A DNA stretch of 17,929 nucleotides, taken from positions 1 to 17,929 of IMG/VR virus record IMGVR_UViG_2548876946_000015. One strand, 5' to 3'. Below are positions 10,423-17,929 of this stretch, one piece after another. Origin of the DNA: a virus (taxonomy: Duplodnaviria > Heunggongvirae > Uroviricota > Caudoviricetes). Positions within the stretch are counted from its first letter, which is position 1. Every line of letters begins with the position of its first letter. The position numbers and the translations under genes were made by a program. The notes under the pieces are model-generated. The model was not told where the DNA came from, did no database searches, and saw only the letters and a program-made list of their open reading frames with translations.

Positions 10423-10455
10423 GCAAGCATACATCACAACAAAGGTGCTTGCATT
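10420..10455. repeat. Operator-like inverted repeat IR2 (AATGCAAGCAT ... TGCTTGCATT)
   Basis: Second copy of the 12-bp TAATGCAAGCAT at 10419-10430 (first copy at 10363-10374) with an inverted partner TGCTTGCAT at 10446-10454, ending 1 nt before the ATG at 10456. Confidence 0.45.
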
Positions 10456-11424
10456 ATGACTGAAAAGAAAAGTGGCGAAGGGAAAGCTAAGGGCGGGATC
10501 GCTCGCGCAAAGTCGCTGACTAAAGAGCAGCGTTCTGAAATAGCAAAGAAAGCAGCTGCTGCAAGATGGAAAAGTAAGATTCTCAGGGCAACTCATCGTG
10601 GTAACTTTTTAGATGATTTTGGCATTGACGCTGAATGTTATGTACTGGATGACGAGTCGAAAACTGTCGTTGTTACGAAAACTGGATTATCTCAGTTGCT
10701 AGGGATTGGTGAACATGCCAGGGATTTAGATCAACTGCTTGGCGCTCAGTATATGAGCAAATACCGAGATCTAGAATTGCAGCGAAAAATGGAAAATCCC
10801 TATAAATTTCAACTTACTTCGAAGTCTAAAACCGTTCATCAAGCGTTAGGTTATGACATTACAGCAATTGTTGATATTGGTAGGGCACTAATAGAAGCCA
10901 AAGATAATGACGATCTACCACAATCACGGTTAAAGGCAGCCGCCGCAGCACAGAGACTTATTAATGCCTCCGCTAAGGCGGGAATTAAGGGGGTTGCGTA
11001 TGCGCTTGCTGGTTATCGTCCAGAAGTTCAGGCTGTCATTGACGAGTTCAAAGCGTTTGTTCGTGAAGAGGCTCGTCAATATGAAAAGGAATTTCCAGAT
11101 GAGCTATACGAGGAGTGGTATCGACTGTACGGCCTGAATAGGCCAGAGAAAGGACGGCCTATTCGTTTTGGGCAGCTAACCAACATGCAGATATATACCC
11201 CGCTAGCAAAGAGCAAAGGTAAAATTCTTGAACAGATTCGAGCCAGCCGAGACGAGAACGGAAAACAATCTGATAAGTTGCATCTGTTCCTTTCTGAAAT
11301 TGGTGTCAAGGCTTTGCGTCAGCATATCGGTAAGCTTCTTGGTGTCGCAGCGATGAGTGAGACAAGAGAAGAATACGAAAAAGGAATAGAAAAGGTTTTC
11401 GGAAGAATGAAACCAGAAATCTAA
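10456..11424 (+). CDS. Hypothetical accessory (moron) protein, 322 aa; basic N-terminal segment; function unknown
   Basis: Start preferred at ATG 10456 (MTEKKSGEGKAKGGIARAKSLTKEQRSEIAKKAAAARW...) with AAAGG 8-9 nt upstream; the track's 10393 start lies inside the promoter/operator region. Lys/Ala-rich N-terminus followed by a segment (CYVLDDESKTVVVTKTGLSQLLGIGEHARDLDQLL) loosely reminiscent of KilA-N/Bro-N-type folds. Ends at a strong terminator. Confidence 0.6.
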   Translation: MTEKKSGEGKAKGGIARAKSLTKEQRSEIAKKAAAARWKSKILRATHRGNFLDDFGIDAECYVLDDESKTVVVTKTGLSQLLGIGEHARDLDQLLGAQYMSKYRDLELQRKMENPYKFQLTSKSKTVHQALGYDITAIVDIGRALIEAKDNDDLPQSRLKAAAAAQRLINASAKAGIKGVAYALAGYRPEVQAVIDEFKAFVREEARQYEKEFPDELYEEWYRLYGLNRPEKGRPIRFGQLTNMQIYTPLAKSKGKILEQIRASRDENGKQSDKLHLFLSEIGVKALRQHIGKLLGVAAMSETREEYEKGIEKVFGRMKPEI

Positions 11425-11428
11425 TTAT

Positions 11429-11456
11429 GAAACCCACCTTCAGGTGGGTTTTTTGT
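11429..11456 (+). terminator. Rho-independent terminator after the 322-aa gene
   Basis: AAACCCAC-CTTCAG-GTGGGTTT hairpin followed by TTTTTTG. Confidence 0.7.
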
Positions 11457-11503
11457 ACAAATCCTTCAGCCAGTACATAACTACTGACAGATAACCAACG
11501 CAA

Positions 11504-11530
11504 CGACCCAGCTTCGGCTGGGTTTTTTTA
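11504..11530 (+). terminator. Second tandem Rho-independent terminator
   Basis: ACCCAGC-TTCG-GCTGGGT hairpin (UUCG tetraloop) followed by TTTTTTT. Confidence 0.7.
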
Positions 11531-11535
11531 TGCCC

Positions 11536-11667
11536 AAAATTCACCGTGTCCACGCTTAGGTAATGAGCTTGAAGGAGAGCACTACACAAAAAGTGTAGTG
11601 CAAAAAGCGAACAAAATAACTTCCTAAAAAGTTGTTTTATCACAAAAAAATTCACCGTAGCCATGCT
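11536..11667 (+). promoter_or_regulatory. Tailspike upstream region with a 21-bp direct repeat pair flanking a perfect 9-bp palindrome
   Basis: AAAATTCACCGTGTCCACGCT (11536-11556) and AAAATTCACCGTAGCCATGCT (11647-11667) are 18/21 identical. GCACTACAC-AAAAA-GTGTAGTGC lies at 11579-11601. Confidence 0.4.
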
Positions 11668-11699
11668 GCGGCGATTCCTTGTATCTGGAGCAAATTAAA

Positions 11700-13940
11700 A
11701 TGACAGATTCAATAAATGCCAATGTTGTAGTGAGTATGCCTTCGCAACTCTTCACTATGGCGCGTTCTTTTAAAGCCGTAGCCAATGGTAAAATTTATAT
11801 CGGTAAAATTGACACTGACCCGGTAAATCCTGAAAACCAGATTCAGGTTTATGTGGAGAACGAAGATGGCTCTCACGTTCCTGTTTCTCAACCAATCATC
11901 ATTAACGCTGCTGGCTACCCTGTATATAACGGACAGATTGCTAAGTTCGTTACTGTACAAGGGCATTCTATGGCTGTTTATGATGCGTACGGTGCTCAGC
12001 AGTTCTATTTTTCGAATGTGCTGAAGTATGACCCTGACCAACTCAGGCAAGATCTTGCATCTCAAGGAGGTGTTAATCTGGTAAACGGAGCTATCTCACA
12101 GGAAGATCTTGTTTTGCAGTCGATCACAAAAATTCCAAGTTATGATAATTCTAACGTAGTCCAGGCGTGGCGCGATAGTGTTGCGACCTACGGGTATGTT
12201 TACTTCTCTAATCATTCAAAAAATCAGATGGTGTACACCGTACCGTCTACAGCTGCTAACGCTTCTTTCCTTGCGAACAGTAAAGTAATCATTGATAAAA
12301 ATGTCACCCTGAGATTCGACAGTGATCTGTACTCACTGTTTAAATCGTTGCAGTACGAGGGGGAGGGTACGTTTGAATTTACGCACCTGAACTTTAAAGC
12401 AACCGGTGGAGAAGTGGATTACCTGGCTAAGCAGGCCATCCTCAACCGAAATCCTATTCGCATGAAGCGAGTGGAATGGTCAGATTGTAAAGTTTATTCC
12501 ATAAATGGTGACACGTTCTTCTATGAAGGTGAAGTCACCATATCCTCAGATAGCGCAGCTATCTTCCCCTTAACTACTGACCGTACAACAGGCCTGTTCG
12601 CACCAATAGATATTGGAGAGCATATTTCTGCACATATTCGTATGGAGTCTCAGGCCGCCTCAGAAGTTGGGATTGTTCTGCGATGCTCTGGTGGTTGGAT
12701 GATGTTCTATGGGGCACCAGGTGCTACACAGTGGTCTTATAGACAGAAACCAATTGGTGGTCCAGTAGCAGAAGGAACTCCATTCCCGCTGCCAGGAGGT
12801 TTACTGTCGTACGCCCCGGGCAAAGCAACCGTTGGCGTATCACTGCAAGGTAAAAACTGGGCGCAGATAACGATGAATGGCGTTGGGATACGTTTGCCCT
12901 TTGATACTGCTGATGTAGGGGATGTATACGAAGTTGGGTTTGTTGCACTGACCACGGCATCTGGAGGTTCTGCGCGTGTAACTGGATTATGCAGCTACAC
13001 CTCTGATAATGGCGTGCACGGTAAGCCTCCACTTAATATCCTTATCCACGGTGATAGTACAGCTGAGGATTTCATTTCCGCGTTCAGCTCGTACATTCCG
13101 CAATTAATGGATGGAGCGAACGGCCACCGTTCATATAGCATTGTAAACAAGGCAGTTGCCGGACAGACAATGAGGCAACAGTTAGATCTCCTGAAGGCTC
13201 AGGGGCCGGGTGATGCTTACATCGTTATTATGGTTGCCGGAACTAACGAAGGGCAGGCAAACCAAAACGGCGATTATATGGCGGCACTGATAGATGAGTT
13301 TGTCTTATATTGCAATGGCCTTGGTCGTATCCCTGTTTGGGTTGAGCCGTGGATGTGGTATAGCCAGTCATTTATTGGAGGGGCTGGCCAGCCATCTTCT
13401 AACTACGACGGTGTCGCAGAGTTGCGAGAAGCTGGTAAACGCCAGATGATGAAATATGGCAATAACGTCATTTGTGTAACAACAACTCACCAGCTCCCGG
13501 CCCCATATCCAGAGTATTTCAATACGCAATACGACCCACTTCTGCGTGATGACATTCACCAAAGCCAGTTAGGGTATCGTCTGTATGCGGAAATTATCTG
13601 CTCTGCCATTATCGACTGGTGGTCGCGTGTTGATTACACGCCAAGAGCAGCTGTTCAATGGTGGGCTGGAACAAACGTAACAGTACAGGCACCGTCAAGT
13701 TTAACTGCCAATTCAATTAATATTAAACTGGCAGCCACTTCATTTGCGAATGGTAATACTGTTCTAACGCTGCCAAGGTGGTGTAGACCAACAGTAACAA
13801 AAAATGTCCCTGTACCGTTCACTGCTGATGGAATATCTTACGGTATGGCGATGGCAACAATAAGCGCATCAACCGGGTCGATAACAATTAATGGATCTAC
13901 TACAGCCTCACCAATATTTTACATTGATGCTTCCTGGTAG
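11700..13940 (+). CDS. Tailspike protein: P22-type N-terminal head-binding domain plus SGNH/GDSL esterase-type domain, 746 aa
   Basis: Start preferred at ATG 11700 ([12 protein letters not shown]...) with GGAG upstream; the track's 11679 start is a TTG. The N-terminal ~110 aa ([39 protein letters not shown]...[15 protein letters not shown]...NVLKYDPDQ) closely resemble the P22 tailspike head-binding domain as recalled. The C-terminal half has SGNH blocks: GDS at 13050-13058 ([14 protein letters not shown]), a Gly block (AVAGQT), GTNE ([11 protein letters not shown]) and DxxH at 13548-13559 ([10 protein letters not shown]). Confidence 0.85.
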
Positions 13941-13967
13941 AAAAAGGCCGCAATGCGGCCATCTTTT
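13941..13967. terminator. Bidirectional terminator between the convergent tailspike and SGNH genes
   Basis: AAAAA-GGCCGCA/TGCGGCC hairpin-ATCTTTT; A-tract on one side and T-tract on the other. Confidence 0.55.
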
Positions 13968-14661
13968 ACTTCACATGTTTATTAATCTCTCTCATCCAAA
14001 CGGCATAGCCATTTTTATTTAAATGCACTCCATCATCAAAGTACAATTCAGATTTTTTATCAGATAAAAAATCTGCAGGAACTTCTATTATATTGCAGTT
14101 AACTATGCGACTACATGTTCTATCAATAATAGAGTTAATCATGCTTATTCTTGAATTGACATGGTCTACGTCTTTTCTTGCCCCGCTTATGATTGGCAAA
14201 ACTTTTAATGCATAAATATTATCAACCTTTGATACACTCTTAAGCAGTTTGTCATAATCATCAAATATTTCCTCTTCGGTTTTCGCACCCATCGCATCGT
14301 TAACTCCACCTTCAATTATCGCAGCTTTATATCCAGACGCCCCATAATTTTCTGATAGAGTTAGGATCTGATGTATAGAGTATCCTCCGACCCCCATATT
14401 AACATATTTAAAGTTTAACCCATATGGTGACATTCCTTGTATGAGCGAGTCGCCATAAACCACAATGTCGCCGTCAGCTTGATTAGCATTCATTTTTTTA
14501 AAATCTAGCATCACAGCCTGAAAGTCGTTAACTTTTTTTTGAGATAAATAATTTCTAATTGAACGAACAGACAATACTATAATAACTATTGCAATCAGAA
14601 TAAACAGCATTGCCAAATATTTATTTGCTTGAGACTTTCTATTTGTTTGTTTTGACTTCAT
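13966..14661 (-). CDS. Membrane-anchored SGNH/GDSL-family hydrolase (esterase or acyl-transfer accessory domain), 231 aa
   Basis: ATG at 14661 with AAAGGA 7 nt upstream. One N-terminal TM helix (YLAMLFILIAIVIIVLSV). SGNH blocks I (VVYGDSLIQG), II (NMGVGGYS), III (EGGVNDA) and V (DDGVHLNKNGY). Very AT-rich. Confidence 0.8.
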   Translation of the reverse strand: MKSKQTNRKSQANKYLAMLFILIAIVIIVLSVRSIRNYLSQKKVNDFQAVMLDFKKMNANQADGDIVVYGDSLIQGMSPYGLNFKYVNMGVGGYSIHQILTLSENYGASGYKAAIIEGGVNDAMGAKTEEEIFDDYDKLLKSVSKVDNIYALKVLPIISGARKDVDHVNSRISMINSIIDRTCSRIVNCNIIEVPADFLSDKKSELYFDDGVHLNKNGYAVWMREINKHVK

Positions 14662-14745
14662 TGCATTTTCCTTTTAATAAGGTTTAAGGTTAAAAATATA
14701 TTTACGCTTCAAATCAACGAATTGAGAAAATTATTCAGCCAACCA

Positions 14746-15024
14746 CTAACTAGACTTGCAATCTAATCTTATATATGATCTGAGTAAGAGTGTAAAAATC
14801 CGCTTAATCCTTCTTAAGTAAAAATCGGAAAAAGAAAATTTACCGCTATTTAAATTTTTAAAAATAATACTTGAAATTAAAAGGCTAGATATTATGAAAA
14901 ATAAATCAAACCCATTGAACTCTCCAGAAAATGCGCTTGGGAAAGCGTGAAACATCACAACAGCGACTGCTCTTAAACCATCTATACCAGCTCTATACTT
15001 TATCATTTTTATTGTCCAATTCAT
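14746..15024 (-). pseudogene. Remnant of an acyltransferase-3 (AT3) gene: N-terminal ~90 codons only
   Basis: Translation MIKYRAGIDGLRAVAVVMFHAFP...FNGFDLFFIISSLLISSIIFKNLNSGKFSFSDFYLRRIKRIF matches the conserved N-terminal signature of AT3/OafA/OatA-type acyltransferases (R...H motif, VDxFFxISGxLI, FYxRRxxRI). The ORF stops after 92 codons, 85 bp before the SGNH gene, and is in the same reading frame as the SGNH ORF. Confidence 0.55.
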
Positions 15025-15313
15025 CTACAGTGAAAGAGCAAAGAAAAACAATGCAATATATCTCATGTGACTACTCCTAAAATAAATTTAATGATAATAA
15101 CATCATGAGGATAAATTTAGAAGTGGGAAGATCGGAAATGCTCATTGAGCAGCAGAAAAAATATCACTGACTCTGTATACACATACAGTATTTTTTGTCT
15201 GTTATTGATCATTGGATACTTGAGCCTAGCGTAAAAGTAATATGAATGATACAGTATGCTTATATAATTGATTTTTGCTCTCGGTGTAAGTTCGGATTGT
15301 ATTATATAACCAG

Positions 15314-15339
15314 AAAATATCCCCAGAACTAAGCTGGGG
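15314..15339 (-). terminator. Terminator after the AT3 acyltransferase gene (minus strand)
   Basis: Minus strand reads CCCCAG-CTTAGTT-CTGGGG followed by ATATTTT, immediately after the stop at 15354-15356. Confidence 0.5.
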
Positions 15340-15353
15340 ATTCATGTCATATG

Positions 15354-16394
15354 TCAGCTTGCTAGTGCGATCTTCCTAAGCCTGTGACCTATATTTATAG
15401 ATGGTTTTTCAATTACCTTATAAGAAATAGTTGCTAGTGCGATCGTAGCTAATAGGTATAAAACAAAAATAATAAAATTAAAATCTGTGTCCATGTCTAT
15501 ACTGACAGATACAATCTCTAAAAAGAATGGGTGAATCAAGTATACAGAGTAACTTATCGATCCCAGGAAAACCAATAATCCTACATTCAATTTTACCCGT
15601 GTAGTGAGCAATAGCGTCAATACTATGCCTGTAAGATAGCTAGCAATATAGGAGGAAGCATTTTCCCCATGCCCATAGTCTTTATTGTAGGACATTAAGC
15701 AAATCGGAGCAATCGCCACTAGGAATGTTATTAAAAATACAATGCACATATTTCTTTCTGATCTCGATGCAATCCCAATGCTCACTGAACGCCATAAGCT
15801 ACCAAAGAACATTAATGACATAGCTAGCGGTATTGCCACAGGAACTTTTTTATCAAGAACGAATCTCACGTATGAGAAAGCAAGAGCGGTTGCAATAAGT
15901 CCTATAGAAATTAAAAATAAAGAAACCTTACTCTTTAATAAATTTACTTTGAAAAGAAACGCACAGGAAGCATAGAAGAACAACTCAATTATTAGCGTCC
16001 AATAAACACCAAACATATCTGGAGATCTCAGTAAAGATTGAAGCATGGTAATATTAGACAACAGAGTTCTTATATCAAGTGGTCTATGAGTTACAAACAA
16101 AAAAGTAAAGGCCGCCAGAAATACTGAAAACCAGTAAGCGGGATATAGTCTAAAAAACCTTGATATAATGAACCCGGATATCGCTCTTTTCCCTTCCTTT
16201 AGGCTGTAAGGTATTACCATGCCACTTAACACAAAGAAGCAAACAACACCAACCTGACCAAAGTTAACATGCTTAAATAAAAAACTGTTATGCAATGGTG
16301 TTCGCTCTATGAAATGTGCACATGCAACCATCAGGGCTGCAAGTCCACGCAAAGAGTCTAGGAATTCTAGACGATTTCCATTTCTTATAGACAT
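15354..16394 (-). CDS. Acyltransferase family 3 (AT3) integral membrane O-acyltransferase, 346 aa; candidate O-antigen acetyltransferase for lysogenic conversion
   Basis: ATG at 16394. N-terminal LDSLRGLAALMVACAHF (R...H catalytic signature), FGQVGVVCFFVLSGMVI and about ten hydrophobic helices. AT-rich. Located between tailspike and integrase, where the Sf6 oac-type gene lies. Confidence 0.8.
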   Translation of the reverse strand: MSIRNGNRLEFLDSLRGLAALMVACAHFIERTPLHNSFLFKHVNFGQVGVVCFFVLSGMVIPYSLKEGKRAISGFIISRFFRLYPAYWFSVFLAAFTFLFVTHRPLDIRTLLSNITMLQSLLRSPDMFGVYWTLIIELFFYASCAFLFKVNLLKSKVSLFLISIGLIATALAFSYVRFVLDKKVPVAIPLAMSLMFFGSLWRSVSIGIASRSERNMCIVFLITFLVAIAPICLMSYNKDYGHGENASSYIASYLTGIVLTLLLTTRVKLNVGLLVFLGSISYSVYLIHPFFLEIVSVSIDMDTDFNFIIFVLYLLATIALATISYKVIEKPSINIGHRLRKIALAS

Positions 16395-16710
16395 TAAAGA
16401 TACCTAAGTTAAGTGTAGTAATAGGATTAATTTTAACAGCATGATTCTGTTGATCAATGGATAAGCAGCGTGTTTTGAAGTTGATCTGATTTTTACTATG
16501 ATTATATTGTGTTCTCGCACAGTATTTTATCGTAAGTGCACCATGGGCTTCTATCTCCAGCAGCAGAACTAGTTGAAGATAGTGTGTCAATCGACAAGAG
16601 CCTTATTGCTCCAATCTCAGTCACGTACATGATGATATCCGTCAGGTCATTATCAACGAAGAGTGTTATGGTTAGTTTGATTATTGTGCGGTGATGTGAG
16701 AAAAACTTAG

Positions 16711-16740
16711 AAAAACAAAGTCTTGCACTGGATTGCAAGG
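16711..16740 (-). terminator. Terminator downstream of the integrase gene (minus strand)
   Basis: Minus strand reads CCTTGCA-ATCCAG-TGCAAG followed by ACTTTGTTTTT, about 30 nt after the integrase stop. Confidence 0.45.
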
Positions 16741-16771
16741 CTTTGCGCTATTCGATTGTGGTTGAGGCTGA

Positions 16772-17929
16772 TCACTTCACCTTTTCATCAAGCCAATCCG
16801 CCCACCACTGCATCATTTCTCTGCGCTTATCGAGATACTGAGCGTGGTTGTAAATCCCGCGCACAGATCCGCCGTTGGCATGTGCCAGTTGCACTTCAAT
16901 AGCGTCAGCAGGCCATTCGTGCTCGTTCATAATCGTGCTGAATTCATGCCTGAATCCGTGACCGCTTTCCAGACCTTCATAGCCGATTTGTTTGATCACA
17001 AGCAGTACAGCGTTCTCGCAAATTGGCTTCTTCTTATCGTTGCGCCCGGCAAAAACAAACTCTGACACTGGTTTAGTGATTGAGCTTAGCGTAGTGAGAA
17101 GTTCAATCACCTGGTCTGACATAGGAACCACATGAATTTTGCGTCCCTTCATCACACTGGCGTCGATGGTGATAATCCTGTTTTCAAAATCGACGTTCTT
17201 CCATAGCATGGAACGAAGCTCTTTCGTTCTTAGGGCTGTGTAGCGTAAAACTTTGGTCGCAATGAGCGATACGATACTTCCTGAAAATGTTGCCAGTGCT
17301 TTGTTGAATGCCGGGATCTGGTCTGCAGGAAGAAACGGGAAGTTCTTCTTGCGGTATCCCTTCATGGCGTCAGCAAGGTCAGGTGCCGGGTTATATTTAG
17401 CCCTACCAGTGACAATAGCGTAACGGAAAACCTCGCCGCATCTTCTGCGGGCTTTATTTGCTCGCTCCATTGCACCGCGATCTTCAAATCTGCGGATTAC
17501 TTCCAGTAGTTGCATCGGCTCAATATCCTGAATTTCAAGACCGCCGATGATGGGTAAAATGTCGTCATCAAACATTTTTGCAAGTTCATTTGCATAGCCT
17601 ACTGACCAGACTTGCTTCTTGTGCTCGTACCATTCCTTGTAAATGGCGCTAAAGGAATTGTTGTTAGACGAAGCCTTTTTCGCCTTTACCGGATCGATGC
17701 CAACCGAGATGTCTTTCCTCGCAGTCCATGCCTTATCCCTTGCTTCCTGCAAAGTCATAAGCGGATATTTTCCGATGGTCAGGATTTTCTCCTTACCGTC
17801 AATCTTGTAGCGAAGCTGCCATACCTTTTTCCCTGATACAGGGACATAAAGGTACAGGCCATTACCATCGAGAAGGCGGTATGGTTTTTCTTTCGGCTTT
17901 GCTGCTTCAATCTGCTTAACGGTGAGCAT
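16772..17929 (-). CDS. int: Tyrosine recombinase / phage integrase, 385 aa
   Basis: ATG is the last three bases of the window. N-terminus MLTVKQIEAAKPKEKPYRLLDGNGLYLYV is typical of the P4-type integrase arm-binding domain. C-terminal catalytic signature HGFRHEF ... RGIYNHAQY (HxxR and Tyr). Confidence 0.85.
   Translation of the reverse strand: MLTVKQIEAAKPKEKPYRLLDGNGLYLYVPVSGKKVWQLRYKIDGKEKILTIGKYPLMTLQEARDKAWTARKDISVGIDPVKAKKASSNNNSFSAIYKEWYEHKKQVWSVGYANELAKMFDDDILPIIGGLEIQDIEPMQLLEVIRRFEDRGAMERANKARRRCGEVFRYAIVTGRAKYNPAPDLADAMKGYRKKNFPFLPADQIPAFNKALATFSGSIVSLIATKVLRYTALRTKELRSMLWKNVDFENRIITIDASVMKGRKIHVVPMSDQVIELLTTLSSITKPVSEFVFAGRNDKKKPICENAVLLVIKQIGYEGLESGHGFRHEFSTIMNEHEWPADAIEVQLAHANGGSVRGIYNHAQYLDKRREMMQWWADWLDEKVK

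Follow-up and report, generated by a model that had tools for sequence, protein, structure and literature searches.

How a temperate phage of the P22 type recognises its host when the beta-helix of its tailspike is missing is the question raised by a gene in the IMG/VR record IMGVR_UViG_2548876946_000015 (Caudoviricetes). We analysed positions 1 to 17,929 of this record, hereafter called the window, and focused on the tailspike gene at 11700-13940. We consider it probable that its product is a P22-like spike of a temperate phage, in which the beta-helix is replaced by a four-part receptor-binding module that binds the O88 O-antigen of Escherichia coli and de-O-acetylates it without cleaving the backbone. 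An initial annotation, made from the sequence alone, had already proposed an esterase-type SGNH domain on a P22-type head-binding domain. This proposal is supported by our analysis, in which a beta-helix was missing and an SGNH fold was predicted. The features that carry the argument are the following (positions in the window).

11700..13940, + strand: tailspike coding sequence, 746 amino acids, ATG at 11700, GGAG at 11687-11690, stop TAG at 13938-13940
11709..12041, + strand: P22-type head-binding (virion-attachment) domain, residues 4-114, Pfam PF09008 E=2.5e-65
13032..13625, + strand: SGNH/GDSL hydrolase domain, residues ~445-642
13050..13058, + strand: block I, G451-D452-S453 with the putative nucleophile Ser453, 49/49 invariant, aligned with the TesA GDS block holding Ser10
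13161..13163, + strand: block II, G488, predicted oxyanion hole, 49/49 invariant, aligned with the TesA block holding G44
13239..13247, + strand: block III, G514-T515-N516 with the predicted oxyanion-hole Asn, 49/49 invariant, aligned with the TesA GGND block holding N73
13548..13559, + strand: block V, D617-x-x-H620 with the putative catalytic Asp and His, 49/49 invariant, aligned with the TesA DDGIH block (D154 and H157)

The assignment of the first ~110 residues to a P22-like particle-binding domain was borne out by the match to PF09008 and by phmmer matches in the PDB to Sf6 gp14 (7sg7, E=7.7e-65) and to P22 tailspike chains (2xc1/1lkt, ~1e-48). Among deposited phages, the tailspikes of HK620, CUS-3, Sf6 and epsilon34 share 85-93% identity with the protein, over its first ~120-137 residues only. 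The tailspike thus resembles those of P22, Sf6 and HK620 (Lederbergvirus) by a homologous N-terminal head-binding domain and by the same gene position before the conversion genes and int, whereas its receptor-binding part is devoid of the beta-helix endoglycosidase and similarity stops at about residue 120-137. A sequence search of the PDB with the whole protein matched nothing beyond the N-terminal domain. No right-handed parallel beta-helix was present in the AlphaFold model, and no beta-helix proteins were found among its fold matches. A homotrimer is expected from the homology of the head-binding domain, the models themselves being monomers.

The evidence for an SGNH hydrolase comes from conservation, profile alignment and predicted structure. 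Residues 121-746 were searched against 5.8 billion proteins, which yielded 90 homologues, 49 of which were aligned. The four SGNH blocks noted in the initial annotation (including GDS at 13050-13058 and DxxH at 13548-13559) proved exact in position, and all eight block residues are invariant in this alignment, which extends down to 26% identity. The blocks follow the order of the SGNH superfamily: I (GDS), II (G), III (GxN, here GTNE from G514 at 13239) and V (DxxH). At every divergence tier SGNH is the most conserved domain, with 94/61/43% identity as compared to 80-87/34-43/21-27% in the other domains, and a precomputed match to Pfam Lipase_GDSL_2 (PF13472) exists for 36 of the 90 homologues. 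Because a profile search of the PDB was swamped by the other adaptor domains of the homologues and gave weak TesA hits, a local hidden Markov model (HMM) of the SGNH region was built. It aligned GDS, AVAG, GTNE and RDDIH with blocks I, II, III and V of E. coli TesA; independently of this HMM, the profile search had matched TesA entries of the PDB across blocks I-III.

The AlphaFold2 model of residues 121-746 had a mean predicted local distance difference test score (pLDDT) of 91.2 and a predicted template modelling score (pTM) of 0.87. In this model blocks I-III follow strands one to three of the SGNH domain and block V comes just ahead of its last helix, which is the canonical arrangement, and the domain has the three-layer alpha/beta/alpha flavodoxin-like fold. 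At the level of a predicted structure, this settles the SGNH fold. The Foldseek comparison suggested by the initial annotation ranked carbohydrate esterases first: the top matches were the two-domain beta-sandwich plus SGNH enzymes 2waa, 7tog and 2wab, and the phage proteins 9lna and 9d84 were also returned. In CE2 and related two-domain esterases (2WAA, 2WAB, 7TOG and YxiM 2O14) a beta-sandwich (jelly-roll) likewise precedes the SGNH domain, and the CE2-type matches covered ~420-440 columns with E ~1e-8 (2waa, E=6e-9 over 438 columns). The tailspike differs from them by an identity of 11-13%, by the orientation of the domains (root-mean-square deviation ~19 A over both domains), and by its extra N- and C-terminal domains and virion adaptor. 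CE2 enzymes use a Ser-His dyad without Asp, unlike the tailspike module, which has an invariant Asp (D617).

The likely receptor was indicated by the distribution of the module among 5426 complete E. coli genomes. Of these, 12 carry the receptor-binding module, 9 on the P22 head-binding domain and 3 on a different N-terminus. O88 wzx was present in 30 genomes, and all 12 module carriers belong to these 30, as does XJ55, from which an 81%-identical variant was judged to come. The O-antigen cluster of the host is itself annotated with wzx/wzy of the O88 family. Since the module-bearing hosts came from humans, pigs, chickens, horse and cattle on several continents, clonality alone is unlikely to explain this link; the module was carried on two unrelated prophage backbones. 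Two hexapeptide-repeat acetyltransferase genes lie in the O88 cluster together with rmlBAC, a short-chain dehydrogenase/reductase gene, three glycosyltransferase genes and manCB, a gene content that would fit an O-acetylated repeat unit. Identification of the dehydrogenase/reductase as a 6-deoxytalose synthase was not obtained with NCBIfam, and we make no claim for that sugar; neither the tailspike nor the conversion proteins matched any NCBIfam family. No published description of an O88-specific receptor-binding protein was found. The O88 O-antigen is the likely receptor of this tailspike family, and the exclusive association (12/12), together with the two acetyltransferase genes of the cluster, is best explained by a tailspike that de-O-acetylates this antigen.

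An esterase activity on O-acetyl groups of O88, coupled to a processive mechanism, would operate as follows. The head-binding domain would dock the spike on the gp4/gp10 tail hub, whose genes lie upstream, as expected for a Lederbergvirus-type temperate phage. In place of the beta-helix endoglycosidase, a module made of a small alpha/beta domain, a lectin-like beta-sandwich, the SGNH esterase and a C-terminal beta-sandwich would recognise the E. coli O88 O-antigen. The putative Ser453/His620/Asp617 triad, with Gly488 and Asn516 forming the oxyanion hole, would hydrolyse O-acetyl esters and leave the backbone intact. Repeated binding and deacetylation would then carry the virion down to the outer membrane, as has been proposed for G7C gp63.1, and deacetylation may also free the progeny from debris.

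Several points weigh against this interpretation. On the tailspike alone, Lipase_GDSL_2 scored 20.4 bits (E=7.9e-4), below its gathering cut-off of 32.9. The module family is known from sequences and predicted structures, and the models are of monomers, which makes the trimer and the active-site geometry putative. O-acetylation of O88 is deduced solely from the genes of the cluster. Finally, the presence of a prophage reflects past infection of O88 strains and is not proof that the acetyl group of the O-antigen is the substrate.

An alternative that we consider unlikely is that the esterase is active on another acetylated surface glycan (a capsule, colanic acid or enterobacterial common antigen), and that the O88 link reflects only the binding specificity of the beta-sandwich domains or host clonality. 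The substrate is indeed not readable from an SGNH fold, the host carries the colanic-acid acetyltransferase genes wcaB and wcaF, and SGNH receptor-binding proteins of Klebsiella prophages act on capsules (PMC13123978). However, colanic acid and enterobacterial common antigen occur in nearly all E. coli and would give no serogroup restriction, whereas the module co-occurred with O88 wzx in every carrier, across the five host species and both prophage backbones.

It is quite improbable that the SGNH domain acts as a scaffold for structure or binding, or as a lipase or acyltransferase, instead of deacetylating a polysaccharide, and that adsorption proceeds by non-enzymatic binding. Catalysis is favoured because every catalytic and oxyanion residue is invariant and SGNH is the most conserved domain. 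Although the activity is a predicted one and the SGNH transferases OatA, PatB and SsfX3 are among the fold matches, the best of these matches include carbohydrate acetyl-esterases, and an extracellular virion protein would be without an acetyl donor for a transfer reaction.

A further alternative concerns the domains that surround the SGNH domain in the receptor-binding module.

12117..12419, + strand: small alpha/beta 'neck' domain, residues ~140-240, from AlphaFold secondary structure (pLDDT ~90), D199 near-invariant
12459..13001, + strand: concanavalin-A/galectin-like beta-sandwich, putative O-antigen-binding module, residues ~254-434
13677..13937, + strand: predicted C-terminal beta-sandwich, residues ~660-746, AlphaFold strands at model residues 540-625 (pLDDT ~95)

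The ~330 residues left unnamed between the head-binding and SGNH domains had been put forward as a possible carbohydrate-binding module. The galectin-like beta-sandwich makes this plausible, but the region consists of two domains. Polar residues conserved in the central beta-sandwich are D271, E307, R328, K350, S370, N393 and E411, and none of the GH16/PL7-type catalytic motifs ExDxxE, ExDxE, QIH, RxExR and YFKAG was found in it; a carbohydrate-binding role is therefore plausible. That this domain instead conceals a GH16- or PL7-like glycanase or lyase, with a spike that both deacetylates and depolymerises the O-antigen, is very improbable: given the absent motifs, such catalysis was dropped, and fold matches of equal or better quality are non-catalytic (3mep, GH43 C-terminal domains, CBM66 and galectins). 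The C-terminal beta-sandwich, the fastest-diverging domain, may serve in trimerisation or as a second binding module. As to GDS and DxxH being chance matches without any SGNH domain, a practically negligible option in spite of the sub-threshold Pfam score, it is excluded by the invariance over 49 sequences, the HMM alignment with TesA, the AlphaFold model and the fold matches.

A de-O-acetylase spike directed at O88 would resemble gp63.1 of phage G7C, which, according to Prokhorov et al. 2017 as described in PMC10743462, is essential for infection, needs an O-acetylated O-antigen and leaves the backbone intact. No sequence similarity to gp63.1 (PDB 4QNL) was detectable, 4QNL being missing from both the phmmer and the profile searches of the PDB. 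The two also differ in their adaptor (the N4-like branched gp63.1/gp66 of G7C versus the P22 head-binding domain), in lifestyle (virulent versus temperate), in receptor (O22-like 4s versus the likely O88) and in the two beta-sandwich domains predicted to flank the esterase here. Among other systems, gp55 of the Pectobacterium phage PP99 de-O-acetylates a side chain of 6-deoxytalose (PMC6989608); it was absent from the listed tblastn matches to the receptor-binding part and is retained as an analogue only. Gp48/49 of B2, one of the Shigella phages Moo19/B2, hydrolyses p-nitrophenyl acetate (PMC11654681), and 9d84 is the Foldseek match mentioned above. SGNH proteins are frequent among prophage receptor-binding proteins (PMC13123978). 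The proteins of PP99 and Moo19/B2 and the Klebsiella SGNH tail fibres embody the same concept, and none is a close homologue of the tailspike.

SGNH receptor-binding proteins are thus already known in virulent and temperate phages and, according to PMC6989608, PMC10743462 and PMC11654681, N4-like and SP6-like phages are established carriers of esterase tailspikes. We found no published description of a P22-like (Lederbergvirus) phage with an esterase tailspike; the nearest published candidate, Hf4s, has a glycosidase-like spike instead. If our interpretation holds, the P22-like temperate podoviruses, the textbook model of O-antigen-cleaving tailspikes, would join the groups able to use a deacetylase spike. 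Such a spike would make it possible to ask whether the trigger of P22 DNA ejection needs cleavage of the O-antigen or processive engagement alone. A likely receptor is also provided for a family labelled 'unknown function' in PHROGs, which may be useful for serogroup-specific detection and for the engineering of receptor-binding proteins.

Exchange of the receptor-binding module between virion proteins was observed repeatedly. N-termini found with it among the homologues include the P22 head-binding domain PF09008, the TSP1/gp66-type domain PF18668, the T7 fibre domain PF03906, the tail-collar domain PF12571 and Calx-beta; by our summary count, at least five other virion-adaptor domains are joined to it in other phages. 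In E. coli 602687 (locus L002, 5257-7659), NADC1036 and HN257, all of them O88, it sits on a different N-terminus in an 800-amino-acid protein, with ~91-95% nucleotide identity from residue ~196. In 602687, the only one of the three whose neighbourhood was inspected, the gene lies in a different prophage and adjoins holin/lysis genes. Copies with 90-91% identity (P0014 and P0016-P0018) came from records named Enterobacter, including E. asburiae, which suggests either an O88-like O-antigen or that the module has recently passed between genera. A library of 1.84 billion representative proteins yielded 239 relatives at E<=1e-3, with 42 of them reaching E<=1e-30, the longer ones matching towards their C-terminus, and some relatives are named 'SGNH/GDSL hydrolase family protein' in RefSeq. 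Among the matches listed for the receptor-binding part, the only deposited phages were Aeromonas phiA047 (28%) and two Enterobacter phages (23%).

Three open reading frames between the tailspike gene and intS are convergent with the former. This region contains the following features.

13946..13960, no strand assigned: GC-rich hairpin GGCCGC-AAT-GCGGCC separating the convergent genes for the tailspike and the SGNH protein, kept in the SRY149 prophage
13966..14661, - strand: membrane-anchored SGNH protein of 231 amino acids, Pfam PF13472 E=9e-14
14746..15024, - strand: open reading frame of 92 amino acids, weakly similar to the AT3 acyltransferase N-terminus (Pfam E=2.3e-4), unannotated in RefSeq
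15354..16394, - strand: AT3-family membrane O-acetyltransferase of 346 amino acids, Pfam PF01757 E=2.3e-30, phrog_3333 'O-acetyltransferase' E=5e-56

Judging from these family matches, 13966-16394 represents a putative O-acetylation lysogenic conversion module, in which the SGNH and AT3 parts, fused in the OafA/OafB-type architecture, are separate proteins. Only 3 of the 5426 genomes contain the entire block, all O88 and all with the same tailspike. In the P22-like SRY149 prophage the same tailspike is followed, in the same slot, by a fused AT3-SGNH acyltransferase of 595 amino acids, with amino acid identities to the window of 79% in the SGNH part and 26% in the AT3 part. The SGNH-coding part and the hairpin are common to both (~13941-14560 of the window and 8206-8830 of the SRY149 locus L005), and DNA homology ends at ~14560; domain shuffling has apparently taken place in the conversion gene between the two lineages. 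The 92-amino-acid open reading frame is unrelated to the SRY149 AT3 and is probably what is left of another acyltransferase gene. The hairpin is a probable bidirectional terminator.

The proximity of this module suggests that it seroconverts, by acetylation, the very antigen that the spike would deacetylate, and offers a convenient system for studying acetylation-based lysogenic conversion against an acetyl-removing spike. The pairing is recurrent and not obligatory, since the tailspike copies of PEC301, A30 and GPEC1240 have no adjacent acetyltransferase gene. A 'writer/eraser' pair on O88, formed by the virion-borne esterase and a periplasmic O-acetylation module, in which the spikes evolved to strip the acetylation laid down by rival or resident prophages while the phage's own acetyltransferase modifies a position that its esterase cannot remove, would amount to an arms race within one phage; we regard this scenario as doubtful.

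The tailspike is 100% identical to WP_024236260.1, annotated as 'phage tailspike protein' in NZ_CP148579.1. The mechanical open reading frame spans 11679-13940, from a TTG start (753 amino acids). ATG 11700 is the likely start, with GGAG located nine bases 5' and the same start used in RefSeq. The PHROGs entry for the full-length protein is phrog_17606, whose profile has 753 positions, the 746-amino-acid tailspike aligning to 8-753, and its member or members were apparently predicted with the TTG at 11679 as start instead of ATG 11700. The tailspike gene is the last late gene and ends a P22-type virion operon, adjoining the conversion/int region; genes for the portal, coat, gp4, gp10 and ejection proteins lie upstream, and intS and tRNA-Arg downstream. 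Between the ejection-protein genes and the tailspike (9657-11664) are a hypothetical gene for 257 amino acids (- strand), a P63C-domain gene at 10393-11424 and an open reading frame of 74 amino acids (- strand). In the sister prophages of GPEC1240 and PEC301, which have the same tailspike, an Arc/Arc/Ant cassette of the immI type occupies this slot.
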